A stretch of DNA of 64,000 bases from the NCBI GenBank assembly GCA_036172245.1, contig JAYWIR010000052.1, positions 248,001-312,000 on the forward strand. Direction: 5' to 3'. Origin of the DNA: Raillietiella orientalis. Taxonomy: Eukaryota. The position numbers and the translations under genes are program-made. Below, in pieces: positions 20,201 to 60,636 of this stretch (the first letter of the stretch is position 1; each line of letters opens with the position of its first letter). The notes under the pieces were generated by a model, which saw nothing but the letters and a program-made list of their open reading frames with translations, had not been told where the DNA came from and made no database searches.

Positions 20201-23200
20201 CCTTAAGAAAGTGGTCATCGAATCCAACGATGCGGGGCAGGAATATGCCAACCTGCTGATCGACGAAGGCTCCCCGGTCAACGCAGATATGCTTTTCGAC
20301 CTTCCCCAGAAGCACATATACGTCATGACGACAAAAAAGGTATGTGTGTGACCCCGCGCAAGCGTTCTCATGTGGTTGCGAACCGCTCCCCCATAGATCA
20401 GCAAGGTCAAAGTTGAGGATTGTTCCATTCACAAGACGTGCAGCAGTTGTCTCGGAACTCTGGATCCGTACTGCGGATGGTGCTCTCTTCAGAACAGGTT
20501 GGGGGGGGGGGGGAGGGGGGAAACAACCCCAAAACGCCACGTTTCGCATTCGGGCTTGCAGGTGTACCTTGTTGGAAGTGTGCCACAACACGTTGGAGGA
20601 CCCCCTGTCTTGGGTTTCGTACAAGACCCAGCGTTGTCCGAACATTACGTCCATCAAGCCGGAAAGCCTGCAGTACACCACGGCGCGAACGGTGAGCAGG
20701 CCGTTCCGGTTGGGCAGGCCCTCACAGGGTGCGTGTGTGTGTGTGCGCGTGCGGCCCGTAGCTGGAGATGGGAGTGGACAATCTCCCCAACAAGCTGAGC
20801 GGGCAGTTCCAGTGCATCTTCAGCAATCCCGGCGCCAGCTCGCTCACCACGGATGCGCGGCGGTTCGAAAGCTCTCCCTCCAGCAGCAGCATATCCTGCC
20901 CCACCCCGCGCACGGATCTGCTGCCCGCCATGCAACCCGGCCAACGTGCGTAGCCGAAACGTCAGTGCTGTTCCCCACCATCTCATCTCCGTCCCGCAGA
21001 CCACTTCACCACGGTGCTGTCCATCCGCATCAAAGATGGTAACGACCTGGTGGCCACCAACTTCACCTTTTTCGACTGCAACACCTACGCGTCGTGCACG
21101 CAGTGCGTCAACAGCCCGTTCCCGTGCATTTGGTGCGTGGAGGACCACCGGTGCAACCACGGCACCACGGAGAACTGCCGCAACGAATTGTACATCAACG
21201 GCATCAACGTGAGCCCCGCGCGCGCATTTATCGGCCGGCAGCTGTCGGAATGTTCCAGAACGATCGCCCGAGCCTGCGTAGCGGACCGCTGTTCTGCCCC
21301 AGGATCGAGCAGCAGAGGCGGGAGGATTCGAACGAGCTGCTGGTGGCCGCGGGCTCGCACAGGAACATCAGCGTCCACGTGGACAGCATCGGCAACATCA
21401 AGGTAGGACGCTCACGGCCCACGCACCTTTTATCAAAGGAGTAGCAGCAGCTTAGTCAGATGAGATTTGTGTGTCAGTTCAACATCGAGGGCCGGGTGCG
21501 GCAGGTCAAGGCGCTGCTGCTGGAGAGCGACATATACTGCCAGGAGGTGGAGTTCAGCTACAGCTCCCCGGCGCCGAACGTCACCGCATCCTTCGCCGTG
21601 ATCTGGGACGGCTCCAAGCCGCTCGACAACCCGCACAACATCCACATTGTGGTGTACCGCTGCCAGCAGATGGCGGACAGCTGCGGCCTGTGCCTGGCCC
21701 TTCCCGCCAAGTACGGCTGCGGCTGGTGCCAGTCCTCGTCCCTGTGCAAAGTGAAGGAACAGTGCGAGCAAGGGATGTGGCTCAACCAGTCCCAGATCTG
21801 CCCCAATCCGGAAATCATCGGATTTGAACCCAAGTCCGGACCCTGGGAAGGGGGAACCAACGTGACCATCTACGGGATCAACCTGGGCAAAACCTTCCAA
21901 GACATCTACGGGGGCATCCTGGTTGCTGCCATTTCGTGCTCCCCCTTCGAGGAAACCTACGTCCAGACCCAGCAAGTGACTTGCAAGCTAAACAGTCCGG
22001 GAGAGCCGATTAGCAGAAAGGGACCAGTGGTAGTAAAAATAGGGGACTATCGTGGGGAATCCAGAGAAAGCTTCACTTTCGTAAATCCGATTCTGGAGTC
22101 TGTCCATCCTGCCTTCGGACCGCAGTCGGGAGGAACCAAAGTGACCATCAGAGGAAGGTTCATGGACGCCGGGAATTTCGTGTCGGCCTCCATCCACACT
22201 CAGAAGTTCAACGACCATCTTCCCTGCGAAATCGTCAGGTGAGTGCTCAGCGCGCGCCCTCTCCCCCCCCCCCCATGTACTTCGTACCGGGAAAATACCG
22301 TACCGTAGCCGAAGCCGGTCCGAGGCGCAGTGCATAACCTCCGCCTCCCCCCACCTGGATTTGGGCAAACTGCACATGCAGTTCGATAACGGGCCGCGTT
22401 CTCTGAACCGCACGCTCTTCGAATACAAAGTGGATCCTGTAATCTCCGAGCTGGAATCGGGCCCGGCGGGGCAACCCAGGGTCCCGAAAGGTATTCCTGC
22501 AGGAGGCATCAAGATAGCCGTCACGGGGTTCCACTTTTTGACGGTCCAGGACCCGCGCATCTACGTGCAGTATCACAACAGGACCTTCGAGAACGTGAGT
22601 ACTCGCCCGGGGCGCGCGAGGCTCATCACCCGTCCTGGCAGCCGTGCCAAGTCATAGACGACTCCAGGATGACCTGCTTGTCCCCTGCGATCGACGTGCA
22701 CCCGGACGAGTTCCTGGATGCCGACAACCCTCCCAGCTTGGACTACGGGTTCCTTCTGGACGCGGTGCCCAGCGTCCGCAACTTGAAGTCCAAGGGAGGC
22801 ATGCTGGGTTTCCTGCTGTATCCCAATCCCGTGTTTGACGTGTTCGACAACATCAAGCATTACAAGAGCGATTACCTGACCATCAACGGTCACAACCTGG
22901 ACCGCGCCACGCAGGAGTCGGACGTCACTGTGCGCATCGGCACTCAGTTTTGCAACGTCACTTCGCTGTCCCGTTCGCAGCTGACGTGCCGCCCTCCCGC
23001 AAAGCAGCCCCCTGCGTCGGCGGCGGGCGGGAAGGAAAACTACAATCACCTGCCGGAAGTACAGGTCAGCCCCGGGCGCTTGCCGTGCAGCAGCGGCGGC
23101 ACAGTTTCATTCGTCAGGTCATCGTAGGTGGGAACCTCACGTACCACATCGGCAAGCTGAGCTACAACAACCCCGGGATAGCGGAGAGCCTCCTTCCCAG

Positions 23201-25285
23201 ATCCGCCATCATAGGAGTCATCGCCAGCGGCGCCGTGTTGATCCTGATGGTCATTTTCATCCTGATTGCCTACAAGCGCAAATCCAAGGAAAGCTCCCGC
23301 GTCGTCAAAAACATGAAGGAACAGATGGACGTGTTGGAGCTGAGGGTCGCTGCGGAATGCAAAGAAGGTTGGCCTCCCCCGTCCCGTCCGCCCTCGAGGT
23401 TCTACTTTCGCCCTCCCCCCCCCCCCGTTTTCTTGTTCTTCCAGCGTTTGCGGAGCTTCAGACGGAGATGACCGACCTGACCGGCGACCTGACTTCGGAC
23501 GGGATCCCCTACCTGGATTACAGATCGTACACGATCAAGATCCTGTTCCCGAACATCGAGAACCACCCGGTGCTGCAGCCGGAGTGGCACGAAACCTCCC
23601 TGCACGAGAAGGGCCTCTGCTGCTTCAACCAGCTGCTTCTCAACAAGACCTTCTTGCTTATCTTTATCCGGACTTTGGAAGGCAACCGCTACTTCTGCAT
23701 GCGCGACCGCGTGAACGTCGCTTCCCTGATAATGGTCGCGCTGCAGGGACGTCTGGAGTATTGCACAGACATCCTGAAGACGTTGCTGTCGGAGCTGATC
23801 GAGCGGTACAACGACGGGCGCAACCACCCGAAGCTGCTGCTCCGCAGGACGGAGTACGTCGCGGAGAAGATGCTCTCGGCGTGGTTCGCCTTCATGCTGC
23901 ACAACTTTGTGCGCGGCTGCGCGGGCGAGCCGCTGTACGTGTTGTACCGCGCGATCAAGCAGCAGGTGGAAAAGGGGCCGGTGGACGCCGTCACCGGCGA
24001 GGCCCGTTACTCCCTGAGCGAGGAGAAGCTGGTCCGCCAGTCGGTCAGCTTCGAACGGTTGACCATATACGTATCCATGTCCAAGCAAACACTGTGCGCG
24101 AGCAGAGTCGAACCCCAAAGTGAGGCTGTGGACTCTCCGGTGCGCGTGCTCGACTGTGATACGATTTCTCAGGTGAAAGAGAAAGCGCTCGATGTGATTT
24201 ACCGAAGTACTCCTTTCTCCCAACGCCCGTCGATAGAGGAATTGGATCTTGAGTGGCGTCGGAACGCCTACGACAGACTCGTGCTCTACGACGAGGACAA
24301 TACGTCGAAGGTGGAGGACGGCATGCGCCGCCTCAACACGCTGTCGCACTACAGCGTGCCCGACAACGCCAGCTTCACCCTCATGCCCAAGTCCCACCTG
24401 CAGCAGACGCCCGCGCCGTTCGCCTTCGCGCTGGACCGGACGCTGGATCGCACCCCGCGCTACGAGTCGCTCACCTTCCGCAGTGGGACCCCCCCCCAGT
24501 CCCGCACGATCTCGCCGGTGCACACCGACAACTGCAGCCTGCTCACCTGGCACCTGGTGCGCCACCACGACCAGGACGGGCAGCAGCGCAACGGCGAGCG
24601 CGGCAAGAAGATGATGTCGGAGATCTACCTGACCCGCCTGCTGACCACGAAGCTGCCCCTGCAGAAGTTCGTGGACGACCTGTTCGAGACGATCTTCAGC
24701 ACGACGCACCGCGTGAGCGCCCTCCCCCTGGCCATCAAGTACATGTTCGACTTCCTGGACGACCAGGCGCTGCAGCACGGCATCACCGACTACGAGATCG
24801 TCCACACCTGGAAGTCGAACGCCCTGCCCCTGCGCTTCTGGGTGAACCTCATCAAAAACCCCAACTTCGTGTTCGACATCCACAAGTCGAACATCGTGGA
24901 CGCCTGCCTGTCGGTCATAGCCCAGACCTTCATGGACTCGTGCTCCACGTCGGACCACCGCCTGGGCAAGGACTCCCCCAGCTGCAAGCTCCTCTATGCC
25001 AAAGACATACCCAAGTACCGGGAGTGGGTGGAACGCTACTACCGTGATATCAGTGCCATGCCCTCCATCTCCGACCAGGACATGAACGCCATGCTGGCCG
25101 AGGAGTCGCGCGCGCACGCCAACGACTTCAACTCGAGCGCCGCCATCCTGGAGCTGTACAAATACGCGTGCCGCTACAACGAGCAGATCCAGCTGGCGCT
25201 GGACGAGGACGAGTTCGCCCGCGTCAAGAAACTGCCCACCAAGCTGGAGCTCGTCCACAGTTACATGGGCGCGCCAGTAGTGTGA
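12518..25285 (+). CDS. PlexA: Plexin, class A (semaphorin receptor), about 1940 aa; signal peptide, Sema, PSI and IPT domains, TM helix, split GAP/RBD cytoplasmic region
   Basis: Exons: 12518-13669, 20031-20339, 20397-20497, 20562-20691, 20762-20945, 21000-21208, 21259-21402, 21445-22238, 22309-22594, 22642-23064, 23118-23367, 23445-25285. All introns are GT-AG and frame-consistent (5823 nt). Motifs include [97 protein letters not shown] and KLLYAKDIP. Confidence 0.97.
17242..17278. repeat. (GA)n microsatellite in plexin intron 1, one of many SSRs and homopolymers in 1-30 kb
   Basis: Perfect AG dinucleotide run. Confidence 0.95.
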
Positions 25286-41409: not shown

Positions 41410-42490
41410 GGCTCCGTACAGGTTTCGCACCCAGCAAGGTGGATTTCCAAAGGAACCACGCGCTCCCGGGGAAGACAGCTAAGCTGTTGGCCCGCTCTGA
41501 AAGGGACCTACTCTGGAAAGGCAAAAAGCCACTCGTGGGGACGAAGTTCCTGCGGCGGCCGCACCAGGAGGGTGGCACCCGCATGCGGTCCGACTCCAAC
41601 ACATGCGGCAGATGCACACGCACGTTGGAACCTGCCGTGAACCTGCCTGCAGAGCCTACGCGAGGTGGCCCTGCGCAGCCGATGGTCTCACATCCGCGCT
41701 GTCCGGATCACCGGGACAGCGGACAGAGGTGGACCCCACGTGGCAGAGAAAACGGTATCTGGTGCAAGAAGCGAGGCGGAAGATGGTAAGGAACTCTGGG
41801 AGAGGGGGTCGACTGCGGCCATCCCACTCCCCGTGAACGTTCCCGCAGCCCACGAGCGAATGGTGTCAGAAACGGCCAAGACTCACCCTAGGAGCACGCG
41901 AACGGTTCGTGACCAGTGGGAGCCCCCACGAACTGCGACTACGGATCGACGCTGCAATCCCAAGTGCTCTTGCGCGCTGGGGATACCTGCTCGGTATTCC
42001 ATCAGGAGACCTGAAGTGGCCCCCGATGCTCGTGGACAGCAGTGCCCTCACCCCTGAAGTGGCAGGGGTCGGGTCGGCATTTCTGCTGTTGCTCTGGGGT
42101 CTTCCCTGCAACGCCTGCCGACATCACTGGACCCGGGCGGGGGGGGGGGGCAGGGAGGAGGCCTGACTGTCGCAGGTGCGGGCAACCAGAGTCCCTCCCG
42201 CACCTCCTTCTGGAACGGTGCCGTTCTCACGTCCCTGTAAAAACGTTCCGGGACGACCCTGCGGACCCCGGCTGGCAACCCCAGGGACGTTTCCAAGCTC
42301 CTCTGCGTGGGGGAGAGGCCCCGCCGCCAGACGCAGCATTAGCTGTTCTAAGCGCGGGATTGTGACGGCCTGGAGAGATGCTGAAGCAGTAGCGAACGAA
42401 AACGACGTCATGGAGGGTTCACTTCCGCTTTCTGCGGATGACAGCCAGCCAGATCGCCCCACTTTGGTGACATGCAGACGGACCTAGCCG
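41410..42490 (+). mobile_element. L1/Tx1-clade LINE ORF2 relic (RT thumb to zf-RVT)
   Basis: RDLLWKGKKPLVGTKFLRRPHQEGG matches the FLW.GK.P.V...L..P...GG thumb motif. VDPTWQRKRYLV and PDCRRCGQPESLPHLLLE follow. Multiple frameshifts. Confidence 0.75.
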
Positions 42491-43063: not shown

Positions 43064-44430
43064 GTGACAGGTCGCGTGGACCCGTCCCATTTGGTGGATG
43101 TTGCCACCAAATGGGACCAGTGGCCTTATGCAGCGCACAGAGTCTACTCGCAGCTGCTCAACAATTCTAGAGGCCTGATGTGTGCCCTAATAGGCACACA
43201 AGGACAGTGGGGAAGAATCGATCCCACTTGGAAGCGCAAGCAGGCACTGGTGAACGCCCACCATCTCATAATAGTGCCTAGAAGTAAAGAAGTTTGGAGA
43301 GACGAACTGGTGAAGATCGTCCTATGCTCCCTGTACGTCCCTTGGGACATCAGAAAGTGGATGTTCAACAGGCCAAGGATGACCATCAAGGACTGCGAGC
43401 AGTTAGCAACCAGTGGCGACCGCCAAAGGATGCGACTGTTCCACCTCACTAGGAAGATGATGGGGAGATTTACCCACGCATATCGAATCTCTGGACAAAT
43501 CAGGAATCCAACTGCTAGCGCCTCATCACCAGAGAAAACATCCGAGAAGCAGTGAAGGAGAATTCAGAGGAGGACGACGCTTTGTGTACGACCGCCAGCC
43601 GCTACGGATGCCACGAGGTGAACCTGCTGGTGCTTGGAACCACAGTCTGAACGAGAGATTTACCACCCGACAATCAAGAAGACCTCCTGATGTTTTATCT
43701 CGGAGTCATCCTGAGAGGCACGAGGACGAGACACTGGTCAGGCAACGCGAGAGACGAGATGTGCAAGGTCTGTGGCGCCAGGGAAACCCAACTCCACGTG
43801 CTCACCTACCCGACGCTGCGCCGGGACTGGGCCAAGCTGAAGGAGGTGACAGGCCTGCAGAGGATGGACAAGATGAAGATCCTGGAAGGGATGTTTGAAA
43901 GGAACCGCAATTTTCCCCGATACAACCCAAATGTCCTCATCACCATCTCTCTGTTTATCACGAGCATCGTGGCGAGAAAGACAAAGGTGGGGATCGGAAT
44001 AAACAGCACACCAGCTGTAGAAATGCTGGAAGATTTAGTGAAAAGGGAAATTGGGATCAGAAGCTGTGGACATATTTCTACTTGGACGTACTATTGCATC
44101 TTGCGAAGGATTCAGGAACATAGTCCAGTGAGTGAATTCCCCACGCAAACTCAGTGACTGGATGCCCGCAGACTAACCTTCAAAGTGAAAACCGTGACAT
44201 TGACTAACGCATGTATGAATGGAAGTTGAAAATAAATTCACCCAACCACAAGTCGGACTGGAGAAAACCGAGAATAGAGTAATATTATAGCTGTGTCATA
44301 TATAATTTGTTATATTGTGCCACACCCAAAGGAATTGTTGATTTTACTGGAATTATAAATATAATTTTTAAATAATAACATGTATTTGGGAAAATGAAAA
44401 TATTTTATTTAATGTGGTGTAAATAAACAA
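43064..44430 (+). mobile_element. 5'-truncated LINE relic of the same family (best preserved copy) with AT-rich 3' UTR
   Basis: IDPTWKRKQALV is homologous to the 41.7-kb copy. LLMFYLGVILRGTRTRHW..CKVCGARETQLHVLT..LRRDW is the zf-RVT. Stop at 44157, AATAAA near 44230 and 44422. Confidence 0.75.
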
Positions 44431-45499: not shown

Positions 45500-45850
45500 C
45501 CCTTGCCTGGGCGAAATCGATTCACCCCACCCCGAGTCGCACTGGGGGTGTCACAACAGGATTTTTCCACAGGAAACTGGGAATTCCAGCCCCTGTGGGG
45601 TCGCTACTGGACTGATGTTGACGGAAATCCCTTTGGGGCTCTTCCGTTTCCGATGCTGCTTTTCTTCTGGGTTTTTTTTCCTCCGGGTATTCTTTTTTTT
45701 ATGGGGGGGGAAGGGTGCCTATACTGTCGCAGGTGCGCGGAATCAGAATCCCCCCTCACGCACCTGCTTGCGGGCGGTACCGCACTCCGGCCCCTATGGG
45801 GACGTTTCAGGGCTACCTTGCGGACCCCGTCCGGCACCGAAGACTGACTG
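45500..45850 (+). mobile_element. Short LINE zf-RVT relic
   Basis: MLLFFW...YCRRCAESESPLTHLLAGGTALRPLWGRFR. Confidence 0.6.
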
Positions 45851-45944
45851 CTTAAGGGTCGTTTTCCACCTTGCGGGAAGGCCACAAAGCTCTCCTCCGA
45901 ACACTGTCCACTGTCCACCGCATCCGAGGGTGCGTGACCCCCCC

Positions 45945-46380
45945 AGGTTAGGGGGTCACCCCCGAGGGATCACTCTACGAATCCAGGAAGGACTGCGGAG
46001 GAAGAGGTCCATTCCACTCGCGCTTGGGAGCGGGAACCCTGAAGGGAGCCCTCCGCCTTGGTTGCCTCCGGAGGAATCCCCCGGGTCGTGGGGTCTCTCT
46101 TGTTTCTTCTCCCAAGGGAACCCGGAAAAGGATCCGCTCTGGAATTTTCTTATCCGGAGGGATCTCCCGAAAAGGGTTTGCTCCCCTCCTCCTCTGAAGG
46201 GAACCTCTCAAGAGGCGCTTCCCATTTTCCCTGAAGGGCTCACCCCGGAGGGAGCAGCGCGCTTCTGGCACCTCCTTCCTAGGGGATATCGACCGGCTTC
46301 CTCTTCTCCACCAGAGGAAAACCCCGGGGGTCCCCTTGATGTCCTGGAAGGACCCCGAAGGGTCGACTTCCGATCCCGGC
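45945..46380 (+). repeat. Hairpin-dense dispersed repeat, copy 1
   Basis: Shares the core ctacgaatccaggaagg...cgcttggg...ccctgaaggg...tggttgcctccggaggaatccc with the reverse complements of 46900-47050 and 60010-60320. Confidence 0.75.
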
Positions 46381-46554
46381 CGGTAGACGGAGGCATCTGG
46401 GAGTTTCCGGCTTCCACCAGAGCCGCCGATCCCGAGTGCTCGACCTCATGGACTTTTGAGCTGGAGCGTGGTACTGGGTATTCCGCAGGAAGACATGCAG
46501 TGGTCCCCTGTGCTCATGAACGCCCGCACCCTCCCCTTAAAGTGGCAGGAATCG

Positions 46555-46750
46555 TTTATTTTTTTATAAATACATGCCCCGGCATGACCGAGTGTCATTC
46601 AGTGCCACGGCACCCAAACCAGCGTCATCTTGCGGGGGGGACTCGAACTCACCGCTCGCCCCCTGCTCTCGTCGTCGTCGTCGCTACTTCTTCCCCGGGC
46701 GGGATTCGAACCCGCGACTCCAGGCGCGCGGCGCCTGGAGTCGCGGGTCG
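46555..46750 (-). mobile_element. tRNA-like/SINE-like fragment with A-rich tail
   Basis: The minus strand has a T-arm/B-box gcggg-TTCGAAT-cccgc and ends in atgccggggcatgtatttataaaaaaataaa. A related tail occurs at 61099-61149. There is no clear A box or full cloverleaf. Confidence 0.4.
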
Positions 46751-46899
46751 CGGAGGCCGCAGCCGCGGACCGAATTTGGAAAATCCGGCCCACGCTGGCG
46801 GCCCCATGTGACTTTCCAAAAGATCGAAGCGATTATTTTCCGTGCCGTCGGCTGCAAGGTGTGCACCACCCACGGAGCATCGCCTCCCTCATTCTCCCA

Positions 46900-47245
46900 T
46901 CTTCCTTCGTAGAGAACCGGGAACCCCTGGAGGGTTCCCTTCGGAGACGACTAGGGCGATAAAGATCCCCTACCAAGCGTAAGGAAGGAGGAAACCCCTT
47001 TCTCCGAAGTCCTTCCTGGATTCATAGGGTGGTCCCTATGGGGTCATCTCTCAACTTGAAGAGTCACACATGCACCCTTGATAGGCGGCGACAGCGTCGA
47101 AGAGCTTCATGACCTCCTCCCCCCTCAAGGAGGCGAGCAGTCCTTCAATAATCCTTGGGAACCAAAAAACGGAAAACCCGGTAGAAAAAAGGGAGAAAAT
47201 CTGGAACGAAGCAGAGAAAACGGGAGAACTCCAAAGGGATTTCCA
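46900..47245 (-). repeat. Hairpin-dense dispersed repeat, copy 2
   Basis: Colinear with 60180-60512 (ttcccttcggagac, ccaagcgt, ccttcctggattcataggg, accaaaa...gaaaacc, aa(a/g)ggatttcca). Confidence 0.75.
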
Positions 47246-47910
47246 CTGCGGAGACCCACGGGACTGACCACCGAGCCTGCCTGGAGGTCGAACGACAGGT
47301 TGGACGCCCGGCTGCTCGCCAGTGCCGGCAAGAAGAAGACGAGGGGGGGAGGGTGCTTCTCGTGAAGAACGTGATCTCTCGCACCGTCCTTCCAACATCT
47401 TTCCCGGGGACCGATCGCTTCGTGGGATGTCCTGGCCCGGAGGCATCCACCTTTTTCCGATGAACCCGGGCACGGGCCACACAAAGGGAGGCACCGGTGA
47501 GGCGGAAGCCGCGCAGCCGCTCCTGAGCGCAGCAAAGCCGCACCTAAAGACATTGCCGTCGTCGTGGGCGACCTCGGTCCGTTGGGAGACATCAACCATT
47601 TCCAAGACGTCCGAGGAAGGACGGCATATCGGCCCGAGGAGTTCGGACGGCTGTGGTAAGAGCGAGCCACAATCGACCATGTCCTCTGCGGTAAAGAAAT
47701 CGAGAACCGCATCCGGGGATGAAACGACCGTGCTCAGACCAGACCCTTTGATGCCATTAGCCCTAAAGACCACGAATCCTCTGAAGAAGAGAGGCACAGG
47801 GGCAGCGCTCGTCTGCATGCCCACCCAGTCGAGACGCTTCGCTGTGACCAACGTCTTATCGAGACAGTTCTGCGAGATACGACGGTTTGCAGAGTGCACG
47901 ACTAGGACAG
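47236..47910 (+). mobile_element. Degenerate apurinic-type (APE/EEP) endonuclease domain of a LINE ORF2
   Basis: Ordered motifs across frameshifts: ISTAETH (cf. LQETH), TRGGGC (cf. GGGVA), IAVVVGDLG (cf. GDFN), RATIDHVLC (cf. RIDY) and SDQ (cf. SDH). Confidence 0.6.
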
Positions 47911-48469
47911 GCAGAAGCACACCGCCCACGTGTTATGCAACAGTATATTTCAGATGCAGGAAGTCGAGATAGGAAGCGTACCGGGAGCTGTACATCCCCA
48001 AGATTCCTCCCTCTCGAAGCACTGGAACCCGTACGAGAGGCGGTACGTCTTTCAAAACGTCAAACGGAGTAGTCGGCGTGCTGGAAAGGGAGACCATGGA
48101 AATGGCATCCCAACCTAGGATGAAGTTCCCTCAGGGTTCTTCAAAGGACCGGGAGTAGTCCATCTGTGCGATTGGGTTCCAAGGTCTTCTTTTTCTGTAG
48201 CATCTTCATCAACCGAGCTCCGAAGGAGTCTGCAGATGACAGACTGGGACGTCCTGTGCCTCTCTTCTTGCCTACTAAAAAGAGATATTGGCATCAGACG
48301 GTGCGGAAGATTTACAGCGTGGACCATCCGTTGGAACCTCCAAAACATACAAGAAGAGTCTCTCCCTGTACAATATTCAATGTGAACTGTAGTGTGAGTG
48401 TAGCAGAGTGCGTTTATTAACAATGAGTGCTTAAAATGATGTTCAAACTTTGTGGCAGCTTTAGTTTAA

Positions 48470-49620
48470 ATCAAGAAACTCAGTCCAGCGGTCCTCGGTA
48501 TGGGGAAGACTGGAAAACATGCAACATTGCCCAAGTCCCTATTTTCATTATCTGTTACAGATTCTCCCTTAACGGAAACTCCATGTAAATTTTTTAAAGC
48601 TCATTCCTCCAAGCATCTATATTGGTCTGCTCTAACTTCCTCCTTTCGAAGGAAGAGAGAAGATTGCCCATGAAACGTTCGGCAAGCACATTTGTTATCT
48701 TATTGCAAGCTTCTCTTTGTTGGTGAAAAAATTAAGGTCTGTGTTTGTTGTTTTGGCTTTCTGGATACCTCTGTTGATTGATTGGCTTGAGATGCTGCAG
48801 TTGATGATACTGATGAATAATTGGGAGGCATCTCCATAATCTGCATCTTTATGCTAACTACAATACGTGTTCTATATTCTGACATTTTAAATTTAAAATG
48901 ACTTAGAGTAGAATTTTGTGGCTGACTGTAACAAAATTGGAAATGGTTGAATAGAATCAAAGTCTTCTGTCTGATAAGAGATATTGTGAAATTATGAATA
49001 CAAAAGATGCTGCAAGGTCACTGGCATTTGCTAATAGATGAACCAGAACGCACAATCAAATATTTCCTTGAGGTTTGTCACAGTTCTTTGGTTCATGAAT
49101 TTCATCACAAATGTAGTATTTGTTGGTCAAGACTATCAATTTCATGTCATTGGATTTAAACATCAGAGTGTACTGCATAGCTGCCTGAGAGAATAACAAT
49201 GTACCTTTATTCAGACTGCATCTGGTCAATTCCTTCATCCAATGTCGTATCGGAATTTTCCAAACATTTCAGCTTGCTGTGTATCTCATTGTAAGCTTCT
49301 GTACAATTCCAGGAACAATTCGGCTTATTTTTTAGCTCTTGCATGTACTAAGATGGTGTACGTAGGTTATGCCTACCATACGCATAACTACGTTAGAACT
49401 TTTTGCAAACATGAAAATTGCATTCCAGTTGCAGTCGCCCAAAGTGAAGAAATCCTGAGTACTCTTCTGGTCTGACTGACCGAAGTACCAACGAACATTT
49501 CGTGAATGTCTCGCCCTCGCCAGAATTCAAAAGGTTTCGTGGATTGAAACTTTTATGAAGCAGGACTCCCAACACCCAACTTTCCCACCAAATATTGCTG
49601 GAGTCTTGCTTTTCCAACTT
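48470..49620 (-). pseudogene. Probable endogenous viral element: bunyavirus (phenui-like) L-protein N-terminal cap-snatching endonuclease region
   Basis: Composite of shifted frames: DIHEMFVGTSV / SDQK..DFF / NLRTPS*Y / LFLELY...GKFRY / YIVILSGSYAVHSDV*IQ*HEIDSL. This follows the H..D..PD..E..K.Y order and the downstream VIVV...V.(T/S)NL.L...EVDEL stretch of phenuivirus L. Many stops, no introns. Confidence 0.45.
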
Positions 49621-50874
49621 AATTGAATCAAGCTCTGATTACCACTCTAACTGACCACCTTGATTCAAACTGACACCACGAATAAACCAAGATTGCGTCC
49701 TTGGTAACAATCTATTGAATTGAATCCCCTTTGTAACAGTTGGAAAAATCCACTTTCCACAGTATGATCAGTATTTTACTTGTCTTCACTCGTTTGGACT
49801 TCCATTTGTCGTTACTGTGCTTCCTCAAAGTCCTTTGTGGATCATTGAGCATCGATCTCAGAGGAGGCTAAAATAATCGAGAGTTGCAATACCTCTCTGA
49901 TAAAACCATCTGCATTCACATTATTTAAAACACGAGATTAGATGTCTGTCGTCAGGGCCATAATTGCGATATTTTTGTGACGACTCCACTCGAGGTGAAA
50001 TTTCTCTCATCCTTGAATGATGTTCCGCGGTCAGAAAGCTTTTTTTTGTATTTTTTTTTTTTTACATACAACTTGTTCTTGACAGCTTCCATAACATTGA
50101 AGATGATTAGATGTAAACGTTGTTGCGATCCAAATGATTATAATGTTCAAATGGCTGGCTTATTGAGGCCTCTTGTTCAAATGAAGATTTTCGGCACCGC
50201 CTTTGAATGAGAAGCCCCAATCTGTTCTAGGGTTACTGAATGTAGATGCAAACGGATCGTCCAACATGCATTCGGTGAATCCGGAGCAAGATATGTAAAG
50301 ATAATTTTTAAAGAATGACATGGTACAGATATCGTACCCAGAAGGATGACAGTACCTTACAAAGAGAGTACGCTGTACAGCTCGTAGGCACGATCTTACT
50401 CCATTGTAAACCATCCCGTCAATCAGAGCACTACTGAAGAAACCATCCCCCTCACACATCCGCTTATGGCATTTTGTATTCACTAAGCTTTCGAATGGCG
50501 TTGGAATTTTTCTACAGTGAACCATTCTCAAGATTCTGATCTCCAAGTCTTGCTGGATCACCCTCGGATGTCTTGATCGAAGCTTCTCGAAAATTTCGAA
50601 GCTTTCCGGAACACATGGGCAATCATGTTGACTTTCCGTTTTGATTACGCGGGGCTCAAAGTTCCCTCTAATTCAAGAAATCTTAGAATCACGGCGATTT
50701 TCGACGGCAACGCAATCGAGTCTTCCGATGCATTCGGTAGGTTTCCGTAATCGTACGGAAAATACCCCAACTCAGGTGGGAACAGTGAGTCGGACGGAAT
50801 GGGTGGTCCTCGTCCCCCTGCGTTTGTTGTTTTGGGGCACAGGGAGTGCAAATCGCACGCTGCACCCACAAGAG

Positions 50875-52091
50875 ATGCCTCGCCCTGGGTACACGATTGT
50901 GGTGATGTCTGGAAAAGGAGGAGTGGGCAAATCGACAGTTGCTGTTCATTTGGCCCTGAATTTCAAAAGGATGGGAAAGACTGTTGGCATTTTAGATGTT
51001 GATCTCTGTGGGCCGTCAGTACCGAGAATGCTAGGATTGACCGAGCGACAGATTCACCAATCCCCTGAAGGGAAAGTAGCAATTTTGTTTTTACACCATG
51101 GTATCGTATCCAAATATTTTTTAAATGGTCATGTATTTCAAACGCTTATTGAGTGCACATACCGTGCTTTTATTTTATTTGTCTGCGGTAAATGAATGTC
51201 ATGTTTGGATCTCAGGTGGGTACCTGTGTATGCTGATACGGAGAAAACTTTGCAAGTTGTATCCATTCATTATTTGATGGAAAATAAAGATGAAGCTGTT
51301 GTTTGGAGAGGACCCAAAAAAACAGGTAATTAGGCAGACTGGTGTACAAATAAACTCTTGTAAGAGTTTCTATGTTGATGTTACTACATTAATATACCGG
51401 AATTCACTATTTCATTGTATTTATATGGAATTTTGTAGCTATGATCAAGCAATTTTTGGTGGATATTTGTTGGGGAAGCCTTGATTACTTGATAATTGAC
51501 ACTCCTCCGGGAACCTCAGATGAACATATATCAGTTGTTGAGCAGCTACGGTAAACTTGTCTTTCATATAATTGAGTAGCAGAATATCCATCTTTTAACA
51601 GTAAATTCTTAGACTGTAGATTCTTGAACAAAAGTGCAAGTAGTACATGTTCTTCATACATGAAATTTTCACAATAGTTTGCAGAAACAGTGTGATGGTG
51701 CCATAATTGTAACCACACCACAAGCAGTATCTGTTGATGATGCCCGTAGGGAAGTAGCATTTTGCAAGAAAGCAAAAGTCCCAATATTGGGGATTATTGA
51801 GAATATGAGTGGATACTGCTGTCCACACTGCCATGTATGTTGTCCAGAAGACATTTTTATTAACATAGTGTTCAGAATTGCTCTAACATATTCAGTTCTG
51901 GTGGTGGTGAAGAATTAGCTCAGATCACCAATGTTCCATTTTTGGGAAAAATTCCAGTGAATCCTTTGCATTACCAGACAGAAATTGCATCTGCGGTTCA
52001 AGATGGTCTGGAAATTGCTGCTATTGCACACAAACTGCTTGATATAACAGATACCTCCAAAAATCAATCTAATGCTCAATCAGTGAAATAA
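50875..52091 (+). CDS. NUBP2: Cytosolic Fe-S cluster assembly factor NUBP2/Cfd1 (Mrp/NBP35 P-loop NTPase), about 263 aa
   Basis: Exons: 50875-51071, 51216-51325, 51439-51550, 51678-51834, 51876-52091. Motifs [36 protein letters not shown] and [11 protein letters not shown]. It lacks the N-terminal Cys cluster of NUBP1. The intron 1 donor is non-canonical (see findings). Confidence 0.93.
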
Positions 52092-53020
52092 AATCAACTG
52101 AAATTTATGATCTGTATGAACTTATTCACTGGCAATTCTCAATAAACTATGTTCATTTAAGTTGACTTTTTATTTATTACAGGTGCTTAAGGCTTGTTCC
52201 GATTGGCATGCCTGAGTTTGAGAGGAGCAGTTCTCTAACAACAGTATAATTCTGTAATGAATTTCAACATTACGAACATTTTAGTGATCGCGATTTTTCA
52301 AATGTCCATTTGTTTTCCTTTTTCCTTAATATTGACTTATTTGCACATAATTTTTCAAAACATTCATCAAATAATGAGCGCAGCTTTTGTCTCAATCAGC
52401 ATTGTCTTTAAACGGGACTATCTTTATTATGTCAACAATAAAGCAAATGATCTAAGGCTTTTTTAATTAGATTCATGCAGTTAAATGCAAATGCTGCAAA
52501 ATCACCCAGATTGCTCACGTGATATTTATAAGATATTCATTTGGGGAAAACTCTTGTTTAAATTTAGGTGCATCACTTAATTTACAGGTTAAATTAGTTA
52601 TTTCAATACACACCTTTTCTAATAAAACCAAGGCATATATTGGATTTGATTCAAAGTCCCTATGATAGCATTTTATCCTGTGTACTTCAATAATGAACTT
52701 TTCACAAGTTGAAGTTCATGTTACGTGCCTGCTTTGCTGAATGGTCTTTTTGTGCAACCAAAGTTCCTAGCTACAAGATAGAAATTTCAAATTTGCAGTT
52801 TACGGTAACAGATAAATAAACTACTTGCTGGTGGTTAAAGCATAAATACAAAACCTTAACCAATAAAATAACACATGCAAAATGGCTTTCGAAATACCAT
52901 TCCCTAACACTATGCTTCCCCTTCTGATGCTTCACTCATTTTTATAATGACATTACATAAACTGCTTCCTGACAATTCCACCAATGGCCAAGCGTTTATT
53001 CACACATCCTTGTAAGATTT

Positions 53021-53053
53021 ATTGAAGGCAGAGGCAGAGCCTCTGCCTTCAAT
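53021..53053. repeat. Perfect 15-bp inverted repeat with 3-nt loop
   Basis: attgaaggcagaggc-aga-gcctctgccttcaat. Confidence 0.9.
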
Positions 53054-55935
53054 TGAATTTAAATAAGTAAGGGAGAAAATAATCACCAATGTGGCCTCTG
53101 AGCTTTAGAGAAGATTTGAAAAATTTAAGATTTTTGTTTCAAGATCTGCATTTTTTGGAGTGATGGGTGCACTGCTTGAATTTCGTTATAATGCTATGGT
53201 TAATTTTATTTGGTTTTTGCCGATTTTGCTATCTTGTCTTTCGGAATCTGTTACGTTTGTTTATTAATCACCAAAACAATTTTCATTGCTGAATGATCCA
53301 ATTACGTAAAACAGTACGCACAATTGAGAAATTCCTTTGGTTTGAAGATAAATACAAACACAAATGATAATGACGCCTTTTATAAGGCTTACTTTTTGTT
53401 TTTTGCATTCTGGGATGCAAGGATAGAAGCACTTTTCCCGTGTGAGCGCACAAACGAAAGTTCGTCAGCAAATCGAATTTTGTACCAAATGTACAGGAAG
53501 GAGTGCCACATCCCTAAGATATAGGAAAGAGGAAATTTTCCCTATAAAATGTGCAATGTGGTTGTAAGAATTGCTTTATGCACATAAGAATGGTAAAAAT
53601 AAGACTCTAATTCCAGGTTATTTCGACATAAAGCAGCAAAGGGTAGACATCGCCAAGGAACTGAAATGTGAAAGCCAAGACTTCATCCTGTGCATCCATT
53701 ATGCAAAATATCACCAGGATTACTTGTATAACCATCCAGTACATCCATCCAGAGAGTCAATTCTAATCCGGCTTAGCAGGAACTCACCAAATTAAGCTTG
53801 GAATTGCTGTTGAGCAGGTGATCAGTGTACATGGGGTTTCATTCAGTGTGCTCAATCAGCTAGCCTTACTGATAGAGATTCTAAACTTTCTTGAAAGCTT
53901 CAATAGTCACTTCCACCTGACACTGTACATTGATATCACAACTCTACCTTACAGAAAACTGTTTCTGGTTTCTGTAAAACCAGCAGCCATACTCATGCTG
54001 TCTCATGCATGCAATATTGACTACCGAAAATTTATAATAGTCTGGTATGGAGTGTTGTATTTTCCCGAGCTTTTAAGTGAGTTTTTAAAAAAATTGCATT
54101 TACTGGATCAGATATTTGCAACTTTAGTGAGATATTTACACTTTCAGACCACCATATAATTTTTAGTCCTGACGATTTTAAACACTTGGGAGTTTGACGT
54201 CAATGGAAATAAACTAGCATGGCACAAAAAGGTTTACACTAATCGATTCAAGTCATCGACGAAAATTCTTTTTTTACGTTTTGAAAAAAGGTGTCGATTT
54301 ATGAGATATAAATATCTCCAGTTTGATCTTCAATCAGAGAATTGTAACTTAGTTAAATGAATGTTAGGAACATATCTATAATATATCTTGTCGCATCTAC
54401 CTTTCCCCAGCCCAATGAGAACCGGAATAGTTAGTTCAAAGTGCAATCTACAAACAGAAAAGGGGAACAAAACAAACCCCTATAGCATTTTTTTTAAGTC
54501 TCGTTTCCTCGTTCTGGGGTTACTTATGGAGTTTTTCTTTTCCTGGAGAGCACGTCTTCTATTTCCCATATCTGTTTAACGATCCATACCTGAGGATCCG
54601 TCTATATTGCTTCCCTTCTCTTCTGCATATCTCTTCGCGAGAAAACTCAGAAGTGTGCTATCTGATAATTCCCCCTTGAGACGCTCAACAGTGCTCTGGT
54701 TCTGAAAATGTGTTTTTTTTTTCCCTTCAGAAAGTTAGCTGTGCTCTTCCGCTTCGAGAGAGAGAAGGTTCCCTTACTGCTTGGAAGATTCGACAGGTTG
54801 TGTTCTGTAGGGAGAACGAGAGGTTCCTACGTTTGATTGAAAGCAGACTGAGAATTGGGAACACGTGTCCACGCTGAGTCAGCTCGAACAGAGAAGCCAA
54901 AGGCAGACTCGATGTAGCACAGAAGAAAACGACCCGTGTCGAACTTCAATCGAGACAAGCCACTAGTAACTATGCCTGATATGCACTGGGCAAGAATCCG
55001 ATACATCCAAGACGCTAGGCAACAGCACAGTAAAATCGAAAAGGAAACCGCAAGAAATCAGTCCCTTTTCAGATTGCTGAAAGGCCAAAGGCAGATGAAG
55101 TAGACGATTCTCCACAGAAACTGGATTTGTTGTAAAAGTCAACACTTTCCGGTGTCATTCAAGTTTGAGCTGAATGTATACAGATATTGCCTTCCATCTC
55201 CCAAGGTGCTGATGTATCAATATATTCGCATTATATGAACGCACTCAAATGCTCATGTAGGTAACCCAAGTTTGTCTTAGCATAAGGTGCCTGAAATAAT
55301 TCTGAGGCAAAATATGTAACTGCTGAAATTTGGAGGCATTCGAAATTATCCTGCCTAGGGACCCTTGAGCAACAGAAAAAACCTGAAAACTTGGATATCA
55401 TTTAAATTTATTAAACTACTGGCAACAAAAGATTGCTTTCCCGATAACACTTGCTATGCATTGTTCTCGAAGATTTGTGTCTCTCCCATGATTTCACCAT
55501 ACTTCATACTTCATGATCCAATTGCCATGAACTTTTATAGCAAACATAAGCAAAAGGCAAGACATGAGAATTCCGATGATATTCAGTAATTTATTGTCTC
55601 TTCCGAACATACTGCTCCGATAACTGCTCAATCTAAAACGAGAACAATCACTAGTGATGATGGGAACTAAATGTTTAAGATGCATCCTTCAACTAAAAAA
55701 TGGGGTGTTTGATTTCCTTTTCTATTCTTATGCAATAAATAAATTGATTGTGCTCAAGTTTTTCATTTTATCAGGAGAAAAGTGCCATAATTCTTTTGTT
55801 TTTTTTTTACCACGTTAGCAAATGAACTGGTTCAAGTTTATGACAGAAATGAACAGTGAAACAAAAACATAAACTTCTAATACATGAATGTGCACTGGAT
55901 ATGGATACATACTTCATGCTTATGATCTGAAGGAC

Positions 55936-57720
55936 TCAGGATGGTTCCGTGGCTTCACTTTCTTTATCCTGCAATTCCTTTTCCTATGGATGAATTCAAG
56001 TTAATAATAACTACACTTCCACAAAAACTTTACCTGAGACAAAAATTCAGCTAAGCTTCTCCCCTGACACACAGAAGCAACATAAAGCAAATCTGAAGGT
56101 ACTCCATACTGACTGTGTTCAGTGGGTTGTATCCCTGAATTCTCCCGTAAACAGCGGAAAGTAGGAACTTCTTGAAAGCCTTCATTTAACTCTTCCCAGG
56201 AAAATAGCAAGGAATCAGTCCAGAGTTCCCAAGGGTTAAAATCAACTAAGTATAATCGTCCACGTTCCTCACAAATGTCAAAAGTGTCTACAGCAAAGTT
56301 AAAAGTCAATCACCGCTGGCATAACTACATTACAATGACTGCAGGGAAATTTCTGTACGATGTTTTCTTCAAAAAACTGAGATATTCTTCTAATAATGCG
56401 TGTTTCTTCTTGAATCAGATATGGGTAGAATGCTCGGACATGCCTTTGAGTGATACCTGCTCAAATAAAAGTAGTTACATGTTATGACTTACCTATAAGA
56501 CATTTATCTTTCACAAAACATCGGAACTCAGTTGATGGGCAAACATCCATCCATTTCTTCAGTACCATGATGTATTGCACTTGCAAGTTATCTCCTCCTA
56601 CACAATGCTACAAAGCAAATTGCAAATTTTCTACAGAACACCAGGCAAATTCAATGAATTCATGTTATCCCTGCATAAAGGAAAGACAAAGTAATACCCA
56701 GGGAACAACTCTTGTCATTAATTTACATGAAATCATAAACTATGGAGATGGAAATTTTGTTTCTAACAAGAATGTTGATGCATACATTCATACTGTTCTT
56801 TGGCAATACCTTCAGGTACTAGTGATATCAAACAGAAAAAGAAACAGAAACAGTGCCTAATTATGAAAACTGGAAAGAACACAAAACATCAAACTCAATC
56901 ACTGAAAGCCATACTATATTTAAACAAATGTAACCATCTGTGTTAACATTCCACATCACAATTACAATGGGGAAAGGTTTCAATCCTACCTCAAATGGGT
57001 TCTGCAGGTCTTTCAGTACAAATTGTGAACTCTTTAATAAGAGAAATATATCGTCTGCTGAAGTGCACTTAAGGGAACGATTGTGTGCAACCCAAGTAGC
57101 ATCCTAAAGAATGGAGTAAAACCTTGTATTAATGCAACAAAATCATTTTAAATAACAGGGTATTAGTTAAAGTTCGATGTGGATTCTACTAGTGTATTAC
57201 CTTTGGGGAACTCCAGTTGAGTTTAGGAAAACAGCAATTGCCCAATTCCACGATTACATCGGCGATTCTCTCGGAAATACTCTTCAGGGAACTCTTCTAG
57301 CGATGAAAAAAACTTGCAAACACAATTTCGAAACGTGTGTTCGGTCAATGATTTTAAAATAAATACCGTAATCGGATGTGCAAATACAGTATCAATGGAA
57401 TCATGAGAATGACTTCCTTGTTTGGTTTTGTTAATTTAAGATATTTACATAGTTGATTATAGGATCAAGGGTTTACGTACCACATCATCAGTGGTTGGCC
57501 AGTTTCCATTAATGATATCAGAAGGCAGCAACAGAGGTCCATCATCACGTAGGTAGTCGTACACGGTTTCTGTGATGGGTATTGATGTTCTTTAAAACCA
57601 ACGTGTAATCATGCACGGTCATTATTTTACATACCCAGGGATGGTTACATTCTTGAACAGGAAAAACCAAGAATCAAACGAACACCTCAAAACATCTTCA
57701 CTGTTTGGGGTGTACACCAT
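55936..57720 (-). CDS. CDC123: Cell division cycle protein 123 homolog (D123, eIF2 assembly factor), about 314 aa
   Basis: Exons: 57720-57635, 57589-57481, 57296-57201, 57103-56990, 56607-56493, 56456-56334, 56287-56034, 55983-55936 (945 nt, GT-AG). Motifs CSFDSW, FPKLNWSSPKDATW, IFLLLKSS, EFRCFVK, ITQR and VDFNPW..TDSLLFSWEEL. Confidence 0.95.
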
Positions 57721-59250
57721 TTCAGTCACTAACAGCAGAAAGCTTCATAGGATGCATCAAAATTTTGAAAAAGCAGTATGCTCAACTGATCACTTCCAAT
57801 TCCCAAATTAGCGTACAAGGTAATACAGCTAAACCATAATTACCACGTTTTCATACTGGGAAGGAGTTTCACTAAAACATTTCCAAAGCGCAACGTATGC
57901 CGGTGTTCAATTTCAGTTAAGTTGACGGAGGCAAACAAGCAAAAAGTCGTTTGCGTGCGACATGGGGCATAGTAATCTCCCTCGCTACGCAACTCCTAAA
58001 AAAACACGAATCGCGAACGATTGTGTCCTTTAGAATCCTCAAATGGTTGCTTTTTTGTGATGTTGCTCTGTGGACACGGTCTTGCAGCTGAATGACCCAA
58101 GCTGCGATTTTCGGACGTTGATACAATCAGGATGTATGCTGAGACCACTGCAAGAGCATTCCTGCTACTTGTTTCCACGCGTTTTCGATATTTTGCAGAA
58201 AAGAATTATGGGAAGCAGAAAAATGAATACACGTCATCAGGAGTGCCTTTGACAACATACCTAATCTCATTCTGCAATTCTCGTTTTTCATTGTTTATAG
58301 ACGAGAAAAATGTCGAGAAAAATTAGTATCAATAGTGAATCGACGTAGTACAAATATATATAATGTTGGTATAGCTCTCATTAGCCATTCACTTTCGAGC
58401 AAAACATTTATAATGAATAGGCGCGGCATTTTTCGCGGTAAAATCAGATAGCTATAAATGGGAGTTTCCTTATAAGGAAAGTAATAAAATGCTCACATAT
58501 AGTTTACCAACTCAGCTGGATCTGTGGTTAAAAATACTGGCTGATTAATAATGAACCCAATAAATCATTATCAACATTAAACACAAATATGCATTCAGAC
58601 AGTAAACTATCTCTAAAAACTGTGAATCAGAATGAATTGCTGGAACTATGAAGTTCCATCTGAATAATCAAATCCTGAATGAGAATGAAACTATTTTTAT
58701 TCTTTTCCAACGTATGCCTTCCTCCTCACAGGAGCGAGTGGAATTCTTTGAAAACACAGAGTATAAACACACAAAGGAAATGCACGATTCGCTAGGGATT
58801 TGCATTTCACAAGAGACTTTTAAAGCAATGTTTTTTTCTTAAGAGCAACAACAATGAAGACTGTCTAAAATTTTGCATGCGAATTATGCATGTCAATTAA
58901 ACAGTCTGCATGGTTTTAGTGCCTTTGATGAAAGCTCGCAAGGAAAAAGCAAACTATGGCTATCTTTTATTGACCCTAGTGGACTAGAGTCCAAGTCTCG
59001 AGTTACGTTCTATTCTGTAGGTCAGCATAACCCAAGAGGACTTCCTCAAGTTTCAATCCCATGTCCTGGTACTGTTAGTTTATTTTAAGCCTAAGGGACT
59101 CGTAGATTTTTTCATTTTGTTTGATTTTCTTCTGGAGGCGATGTGTGTGCACTTCAGGAGATGAGCTTAACAGTAAATAATAACCGACGAAGTGCTGTTT
59201 TTAGAGGAATACATAGAGTGCTTCCCTGATTGCACGACTTCCCATCGCAG

Positions 59251-59358
59251 TAAATCGCATGAGAGAAAATTTGTTCAGAGTGTTGAAGGAAAAGGAAACT
59301 TGAGAGCCCTTAAGGAAAGGTGTTGGTGCTAATCTCGAAGATAGAGATTAATGAAAAT
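59251..59358 (+). repeat. 108-bp direct repeat, left copy (putative target-site duplication)
   Basis: Identical to 60529-60636 except for 3 substitutions. Confidence 0.95.
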
Positions 59359-60528
59359 AGAAAATTTATTGAGCATTTGGGTTATTACAATAACTATTGC
59401 TGGAATGGCTCTGGAGAATCTTTTACGAATGATGTTTCCTCCATGTTCTTCACGGTTCCTCGGTGCTCTCTTCCGGGGTTAGAGCATGGTCCAGATCGTC
59501 TGGTTGGGCTGCATTTTTCCTTCTTACATGTGTTGCATAGATGCTACTTGAGAAGCGGATGCAGGTGGCCATCATCCGCTGTCGTAGCCTTATCAGCTTC
59601 TTCGGAATTCCTAGGTATTCTAGAACGTTGTCGTTTTCGGGATCCCATGCTCCAGGTGGACCGACAAGGATCGCCTGCACTTTGGTTATTTTCCCAGTGT
59701 TCTGAGTTGCATGGCGACATCATGGTATCTGGCCTCCTTTATTTTCCTAGACGTGGTGGACGCCTCCTTTCCGTTTTCAAATGGGCAGGAGATGTCCAGC
59801 ACACCTATTCGATCGTTTTCTTCTAAAACCAGGTTTGCTTTTAGGGTGGAGTTGGTTCCTGGCACTCTGCGATTACTTGACACCAGAGTCCACTTGGCTT
59901 CATCGATTGCGGCCTTCTTGATAATTTCCAAGATAGCATCATGGCGCTGCATCGTCAGAGGAGTGTGCTTTTTACATCGCCTCTTCACAGAGTGCAAGGA
60001 AGCAAACGAGAGCGATTCCCCTGCGGGAAGCTACAACGCCCCTTCTGAAATTCGGAAGCGTCCTTTCGGGGTTCTCTTCAGAGCAGGAAGCAGGAGCGGT
60101 TCCCTTGCGGGTTCCCTAAGGAGAAGATGAAATGGAGAGGACCACCCCCCTTCCGGGGTGCTCCCTCTGGAGAGAATGAGGAAGGGGATTCCCTTCGGAG
60201 ACAACCAGGGTAGGAGATGCGATCCCCTTGAAGGGAGATCCCTCCCCAAGCGTGAGAGGAACGGACTTCGAGCCTTCCTGGATTCATAGGGCGGAATCCC
60301 CCTTCCGGGGTGCCCCCTATCTTGAAGAATAACACGCACCCTCCGCGTGTGGCGTGGAGCAGTGTTAAAGAGCCATGTGCGCCGCGAAGCACACGACCGG
60401 TTCTTGAGGTACTTAGCGTACCAAAACAAAGAAAACCTGCAAATGAATTCCTGCAAAAAATGCTGGAAGGGAAAAAACAGCGAAGACAGAAAAGAACCCA
60501 AAAGGATTTCCATCAATTGAAATCACAA
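59359..60528 (-). mobile_element. RT-less non-LTR retroelement with a NeSL/Utopia-like restriction-like endonuclease (RLE) C-terminus
   Basis: QRHDAIL...LKANLVL...VLDISCPFEN...KEARY, then after a frameshift AILVGPPGAWDPEND...IRFSSSIYATH. AATAAA on the minus strand at about 59365-59370 abuts the repeat. The 5' part (60010-60515) is hairpin repeat copy 3. Confidence 0.85.
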
Positions 60529-60636
60529 TAAATCGCATGAGAGAAAATTTGTTCAGCGTGTTGAAGGAAAAGGAAACTTGAGAGCCCTTAAGGAAAGATA
60601 TTGGTGCTAATCTCGAAGATAGAGATTAATGAAAAT
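60529..60636 (+). repeat. 108-bp direct repeat, right copy
   Basis: Matches 59251-59358. Confidence 0.95.

Follow-up and report, generated by a model that had tools for sequence, protein, structure and literature searches.

A stretch of 64,000 nucleotides from Raillietiella orientalis (contig JAYWIR010000052.1, positions 248,001 to 312,000; referred to below as the window) contains three diverged copies, here called A, B and C, of a module that is dense in short hairpins, and the question raised by this locus is what the module is and where its hairpins come from. An earlier note had suggested that it is a structured RNA (resembling a ribozyme, an internal ribosome entry site (IRES) or a protein-binding RNA) at the 5' end of a retroelement or, failing that, a captured structured RNA virus or satellite. 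The assignment to a retroelement 5' end was supported by the present analysis, whereas neither the structured RNA nor the virus or satellite was. [quoted passage not shown]

A common 5' end and the insertion at 60 kb

The homology of the three stretches, asserted in the earlier note, was evident in pairwise nhmmer comparisons (A-C, E 2.8e-20; A-B, E 1.4e-17; B-C, E 3.6e-17), with a mean column identity of about 60% in the three-copy alignment. When the whole window was searched by nhmmer with a profile of the three copies, only A, B, C and one fragment (41955-42071, E 3.1e-06), also found by BLAST, were recovered. All three copies begin with GGAAATCCYTTTGG, and the shared 5' end, GGAAATCC, is located at 45623 in A (plus strand), at 47244 in B (minus strand) and at 60511 in C (minus strand); in the 5' direction the copies extend beyond the limits originally given for them. 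A scan for further copies using a module pattern yielded 70 loci (33 from metagenomes, 2 viral ones from IMG/VR and 35 from prokaryotes), none of which was homologous beyond the pattern by BLAST or nhmmer; the single marginal nhmmer match among them (E 0.00056) was sited at the pattern itself.

Copy C is a complete insertion of 1,163 bp (59359-60521, minus strand) between direct repeats, which are identical at 110 of their 115 positions and whose homology stops exactly at both borders of the element. Because its target duplication is 96% identical, copy C is young. Read along the minus strand, the element consists of 10 junction bases, the module (from 60511 to about 60030), a single in-frame TAG, the open reading frame (ORF) P0005 (60030-59689), a frameshift, P0006 (59719-59453), a stop codon and some 91 nt in which there is no poly(A) tail. 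The module makes up the 5' half of the element, and the 3' half is the decayed C-terminal end of a coding region. Two properties of the duplication may be recorded here: four of its five mismatches are G/A differences, and 115 bp is unusually long for a long interspersed nuclear element (LINE), the retroelement derivative enclosed being 1.16 kb in size.

The coding remnant offers some indication of the kind of element from which copy C derives. P0005 aligned collinearly with residues 947-1050, the endonuclease end, of the 1,121-residue solved R2 protein 9nl2_A, at a nonsignificant E value of 0.63. The 3' half of C contains the motifs RHD...K(AN)LVL...LDISCPFEN...K..Y and ILVGPPGAWDPEN..LGI, which we read as the presumed pattern of the restriction-like endonuclease (RLE) domain; the motif order presumed for this domain is His/Cys, RH[DN], K-x-x-L-[VI], [VL]D[IV]-x-x-x-FE, K..Y and VG..G.WDP.N...LGI. 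The Atlas clusters nearest to P0005 consist of animal hypothetical proteins (0.94, 0.91 and 0.90), and the nearest one with a Pfam family has zf-RVT in 24% of its members, which is to be taken as a lead only. No family of the reverse transcriptase (RVT) type was found by Pfam in 110 ORF translations around the copies and elsewhere; the lack of such a domain is expected if the copies are internally deleted.

The element at 59359-60521 thus has conjoined 5' and 3' ends between insertion signatures, the 5' terminus being the one common to A and B, and the 3' end being represented by the ORF remnant and the UTR. This is the arrangement of the short internally deleted elements (SIDEs) known from R2. 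Taking into account the weak similarity of P0005, copy C appears to be a short, internally deleted, non-autonomous and SIDE-like derivative of an RLE-type element, and its RLE (R2-like) affiliation is judged quite probable. In the proposed course of events, the source would have been an R2-superfamily-like element, and a single insertion, accompanied by duplication of the 115-bp target, would have placed the leader directly against the last ~190 codons (the RLE end) and the 3' UTR. The element is not a canonical R2, because no rRNA family was found in the whole window at the Rfam gathering score and because the duplicated target is AT-rich, non-ribosomal DNA; insertion into 28S ribosomal DNA (rDNA) therefore finds no support.

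Copies A and B are less informative. Copy A carries an extra segment of its own (about 45690-45836) and, compared with C, is partially duplicated internally, which is visible as a second diagonal between positions 276-459 of C and 46155-46330 of A (E 3.7e-06). Because the homology of A and of 41955-42071 ends at the same point, 46552 is the probable 3' terminus of an A-type element. In the fragment at 41955-42295 (plus strand), the stretch resembling the 3' end of A is followed, after a gap of ~70 nt, by one resembling the 5'-proximal part of A, a tail-to-head layout that suggests tandem elements. Downstream of B, the segment 46620-46760 (minus strand) contains two motifs resembling tRNA T-arms, together with a near-perfect palindrome of 39 nt (46710-46748, 92%), after which an A-rich end follows near 46553-46575 on the strand of B. 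ARAGORN called no tRNA in this region, which is possibly the remnant of a tRNA-derived short interspersed nuclear element (SINE); 46553-46882 may represent the body and the tail of a composite element. The search for target duplications of A and B yielded only chance matches of 9-10 nt lying off the borders. The statement in the earlier note that each copy adjoins a retroelement fragment thus holds, weakly, for C (through P0005), and not for A and B, where Pfam gave no support and where tblastx of the 3' half of C against the window produced nothing better than E 0.01. Features are listed in Table 1.

Table 1. Position of the module copies and of associated features in the window
Feature	Position	Strand	Remarks
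Left target-site duplication, element C	59244..59358	.	115 bp, 96% identity
Right target-site duplication, element C	60522..60636	.	5 mismatches in 115
Decayed C-terminal coding remnant, probably of an RLE-type (R2-like) non-LTR ORF	59453..60030	-	P0005, frameshift, P0006
Stop codon and short 3' UTR of element C	59359..59452	-	without poly(A) tail
Copy C module	60030..60521	-	10 junction bases (60512-60521), then GGAAATCC at 60511
About four degenerate ~76-nt monomers, copy C	60325-60015	-	four units align at 57% mean identity
Copy A module	45623..46400	+	shared 5' end GGAAATCC; hairpin-dense part 45945-46380
Copy A, downstream part	46401..46552	+	ends where homology to 41955-42071 also ends
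Copy B module, first ~360 nt only	46883..47244	-	inverted relative to A
Sequence downstream of copy B	46553..46882	-	T-arm-like motifs, palindrome, A-rich end
Fragmentary relative of A	41955..42295	+	A-3'-end-like 41955-42071, then A-5'-proximal-like 42143-42295

Mini-palindromes and the monomer array

Every hairpin named in the earlier note is present in the sequence. Stems of 3 bp with loops of 4-5 nt were counted in the three modules and in shuffles that keep the trinucleotide content (k=3). The following counts were obtained (with the shuffled values in parentheses): 42 (22.7) for A, 27 (13.0) for B and 29 (14.5) for C, with 0-1 of 300 shuffles reaching the observed numbers. The counts are about double those of shuffles preserving mono- to tetranucleotide content. 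If 3-bp palindromes are sorted by spacer length, those with a 4-nt spacer form a sharp peak (61 in the three copies together, compared to 24.5±4.8 expected), accompanied by less pronounced maxima at 2, 8, 10 and 12 nt and by deficits at 7, 9 and 11 nt. This excess is specific for the module: for the window as a whole the ratio is 1.08, and among 159 chunks those containing C and A occupy ranks three and four. Stems containing G·U pairs were not in excess on either strand, and therefore the excess consists of Watson-Crick palindromes, which is a DNA-symmetric property. Purine-rich loops, which had been described as lying on the equivalent strand of all copies, were enriched on the sense strand of A (19 against 7.3) and C (16 against 4.9), but not of B (5 against 4.0), where 15 loops are pyrimidine-rich.

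Copy C has internal repeats from which the palindromes appear to arise. A 21-nt core recurs three times in it, at spacings of 77 and 75 nt, the first and third occurrences being 95% identical, and four units of ~76 nt can be aligned at a mean identity of 57%. The module thus has tandem units of the kind that characterize monomeric LINE 5' UTRs. TRF found no tandem array in the modules, and the repeat is therefore degenerate. With a profile of these units, additional ones were detected in both A and B (E 1e-5 to 1e-4), a result that is not independent of the orthology of the copies. Each monomer holds boxes (roughly AGGGnnCnCCCCGGAAGGGG and TCTCCGAAGGGAACCC) where runs of G alternate with runs of C and every run can pair with either of its neighbours, giving rise to many Watson-Crick mini-palindromes with a 4-nt spacer. 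The word CCNGAAGGG occurs nine times in the window, and five of these occurrences are on the sense strand of A and C; thus, the palindrome excess travels with the repeated word. The palindromes are a property of a repeated DNA word and not of a conserved RNA fold, and the hairpin-dense stretch is an array of degenerate tandem monomers that generate them.

The modules also contain 8 of the 25 matches of the window to the kB-like decamer GGGRNYYYCC (46159-46408 and 60184-60242, including GGGGATTCCC at 60184), for which a window total of 15.4 was expected. These decamers are probably a by-product of the G-run/C-run boxes. Words resembling ETS and EBF sites may be present as well.

The 5' UTRs of LINEs usually serve as internal promoter or regulatory region, and mouse L1 is built with monomers of about 200 bp in this position. 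By analogy, the array described here may be an internal promoter or regulatory region, and a transcriptional role (putative promoter) is the most likely one. The units of the module differ from those of mouse L1 in being only ~76 nt long and only ~57% alike, in belonging to an element of the RLE and not of the apurinic/apyrimidinic endonuclease (APE) class, and in their arthropod-like host. Both have repeated units in tandem that precede the coding part at the 5' end of a LINE; the monomers of mouse L1 act as internal promoter (PMC9022269).

Weighing the leader against other explanations

Several observations weigh against a leader of an RLE-type retroelement. The leader and the endonuclease remnant were seen joined only in C, and no full-length element was present among the sequences studied. 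Neither reverse transcriptase nor endonuclease similarity was detected by Pfam beside A or B (110 ORF translations). The R2 match of P0005 was marginally outscored by two ribosomal eL37 chains (E 0.35 and 0.46), word-based protein searches with P0005 and P0006 retrieved no relative, and P0006 matched nothing in the PDB search and nothing above 0.82 in Atlas. The AlphaFold model of P0005 was poor (mean predicted local distance difference test (pLDDT) score 53.5), and its comparison with the PDB by Foldseek gave no match at E 0.001. Outside the 21-nt core the monomer periodicity is weak, and a predicted promoter function alone would not foresee an excess of palindromes spaced by 4 nt. Finally, the sequence that follows the leader downstream is a different one in each of the three copies, which would also fit capture by template jumping (see below).

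The alternative that motivated the earlier note, a functional structured 5' RNA of the retroelement, in which an array of tetraloop mini-hairpins acts as a protein-binding platform, an IRES-like leader or an atypical self-cleaving ribozyme, is in our view unlikely. It draws on the real, module-specific excess of 4-nt-loop mini-hairpins, on the purine-rich loops of A and C, and on a few stems that are kept while all four loop bases have changed, such as CCC-CCGA/CATA/GGAA-GGG at 45959, 47043 and 60309. The thermodynamic data do not bear it out. When compared to dinucleotide shuffles, the hairpin-dense parts had folding z scores of -0.11 (C) and +0.26 (A), i.e. energies equal to those of shuffled sequence. 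The whole modules gave -2.52 on the sense and -2.89 on the antisense strand for C, and -2.21 for B; this stability excess is modest and strand-symmetric, being equal or better on the antisense strand, and the shuffling of a compositionally heterogeneous sequence may be part of its cause.

Covariation did not favour an RNA fold either. The consensus structures calculated by RNAalifold for the three copies had -39.3 kcal/mol on the sense strand (covariation term +0.14) and -40.8 kcal/mol on the antisense strand (-0.2), the covariation term being about zero in both cases. On these structures, compensatory pairs were more numerous on the antisense (12 of 59) than on the sense strand (8 of 57), as were double changes when counted by pair (13 and 8, with scores of 0.418 and 0.345). 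When local folds were projected across the copies, 162 of 360 changed pairs (45%) were still canonical, the same proportion as with slid partners (45%). Among 86 gap-free cross-copy comparisons of tetraloop mini-hairpins, the stem was identical in 21, changed yet still pairing in 13 and broken in 52; that is, 52 of the 65 changed stems were broken. Only three copies, of which two are old and decayed, underlie the covariation result, and its power is hence low. The two outcomes that the earlier note itself had named as refuting a structured RNA, absence of covariation and folding energies equal to those of shuffled controls, are those that were observed.

Similarity to known RNAs was sought as well. 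In the whole window there was no Rfam match at the gathering score and, up to E 10 with permissive filters, only unrelated sub-threshold families, with no match to a ribozyme of the hepatitis delta virus (HDV) type and none of note to any other ribozyme or an IRES. The first ~125 nt of C can be arranged in a nested topology like that of HDV. A strict HDV-like descriptor matched only at non-homologous positions among the copies. A loose one anchored at the 5' end fitted C alone among the copies; with 200 shuffles per copy, it also fitted 47 for A, 79 for B and 77 for C (24-40%). A ribozyme could define a common 5' end, and the uniform G-starting terminus in three insertions would agree with this. 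The HDV-like ribozymes at the 5' ends of R2 and L1Tc share with the module the extreme 5' location and the G-start (PMC3774820, PMC3185411), but the module has neither a covariance-model match nor a nested double pseudoknot common to the three copies. R2 ribozymes are described as sometimes atypical, with long J1/2 and without P4 (PMC3774820), and an R2 5' RNA structure is described as orchestrating protein function (PMC2346776).

A second alternative is that the module did not belong to the LINE but was an abundant RNA or repeat in its own right, which became attached to the 5' ends of different retrotransposition intermediates when the reverse transcriptase jumped between templates. It would account for the joining of the same head, at three different module positions, to three unrelated partners, namely a truncated RLE-LINE (C), a tRNA-like A-tailed element (B) and another sequence (A), as well as for the head being always 5' and reaching the same terminus; jumps of the R2 reverse transcriptase to U12 snRNA and tRNA during target-primed reverse transcription are reported in PMC3414825. 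End-to-end jumps, however, should start at the acceptor RNA's single 3' end, and the junctions observed are not the same. Internal tandem monomers would be unusual for a cellular small RNA, and the module matches no Rfam family. The tail-to-head fragment at 41955-42295 suggests, moreover, that head and A-type tail belonged to one unit. Template jumping is therefore considered rather improbable.

More speculatively, and with a probability that we would put low, the leader could represent a new kind of retroelement 5' RNA in an R2-like lineage that has departed from rDNA, a tandem array of tetraloop mini-hairpins whose sequence turns over while their density is kept. Such an array might be a multivalent platform for the protein of the element, and might also hide an atypical ribozyme (with long J1/2) that makes the G-starting end. 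Three copies are too few to decide between a promoter and a structured RNA.

It is very unlikely that the module is the N-terminal, Pro/Gly/Glu-rich coding part of the ORF of the element, with hairpins arising from juxtaposed CCN and GGN codons. In A, one sense frame is indeed open over the whole length (446 codons); in C, one is open for 163 codons and is in frame with the endonuclease remnant, from which only the single TAG separates it. Substitutions, however, were distributed over the codon positions without periodicity (48/46/41, 27/27/26, 44/51/46 and 24/28/23), indel lengths are not divisible by three, every frame of B is interrupted by 3-4 stops, and no module ORF matched a Pfam family. 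In addition, the ORF of A starts 152 nt upstream of the 5' terminus of the element and crosses its 3' end into the region of B, and among 1.84 billion representative proteins only two reached E 0.001 with it, both of them repeat proteins matched in 7 and 21 stretches. On these grounds (no codon periodicity, non-triplet indels, stops in B and no real relatives) the coding reading was rejected. [quoted passage not shown]

Returning to the leader of a non-LTR element, the RLE-bearing clades R2, R4, R9, NeSL, HERO and CRE provide the closest framework. Copy C would share with them the C-terminal order of Cys/His and PD-(D/E)xK-like motifs (presumed pattern), and it has a collinear weak match to R2 and lacks poly(A); it differs in that the similarity is nonsignificant, that reverse transcriptase is missing from all copies and that the target is not a known multicopy RNA gene. 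Its 115-bp target duplication recalls rotifer R9, whose target site duplication is said to be exceptionally long, reportedly 126 bp. With the R2 SIDEs described by Eickbush and Eickbush (2012, PMC3414825), copy C has in common the conjoined 5' and 3' ends of an RLE-type non-LTR element, the loss of the ORF, the insertion as a single piece and variation at the 5' junction (10 extra bases in C). Unlike them, it lies outside 28S rDNA between AT-rich flanks and has a 115-bp target duplication, and its 5' part consists of ~500 nt of monomer repeats and not of a ~200-nt ribozyme, no HDV-like ribozyme having been detected.

All three copies are dead fragments, most likely ordinary transposon debris, and as it stands the locus is an ordinary one, with dead copies of a retrotransposon head. 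For transposon specialists, it offers a probable SIDE-like deleted R2-like (RLE) derivative outside rDNA with a 115-bp target duplication, and a candidate 5' leader composed of short monomers, in which mini-palindromes exceed expectation 2.5-fold in a spacer-specific manner. Should the leader turn out to be an internal promoter, monomeric LINE promoters would have an example among non-mammals; should it turn out to be a structured RNA, it would be relevant to the way in which RLE elements that have departed from rDNA form and employ their 5' ends.

Other features of the window

The GC content of the window forms a sharp mosaic, with 56-63% in 1-30 kb, 54-59% in 40-48 kb and 35-47% in both 30-40 and 48-64 kb; a GC-rich island contains copies A and B, and copy C is located in AT-rich DNA. 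A stop-free frame of 766 codons at 22985-25285 (plus strand) encodes the cytoplasmic RasGAP and RBD domains of a plexin (Pfam, E 1.2e-186) and is closest to arthropod plexin A proteins, with 64-69% identity. We take this as an indication of a plexin A gene with few introns, located in a GC-rich block (about 60%). Because the best relatives of the frame are arthropod plexins A, the host would appear, from this protein, to be an arthropod-like animal without a close annotated relative in the protein collection compared.

The segment 43000-43350 had a folding z score of -5.03 on the plus strand (none of 100 shuffles was as low) and -4.9 on the minus strand, far stronger than the module. It had no Rfam match, and a seed-based inverted-repeat search reported nothing in it. 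Near 43084-43117 a perfect stem of 14 bp encloses a loop of 6 nt. The segment also contains an 8-bp stem and is possibly a foldback repeat or one resembling a miniature inverted-repeat transposable element (MITE).

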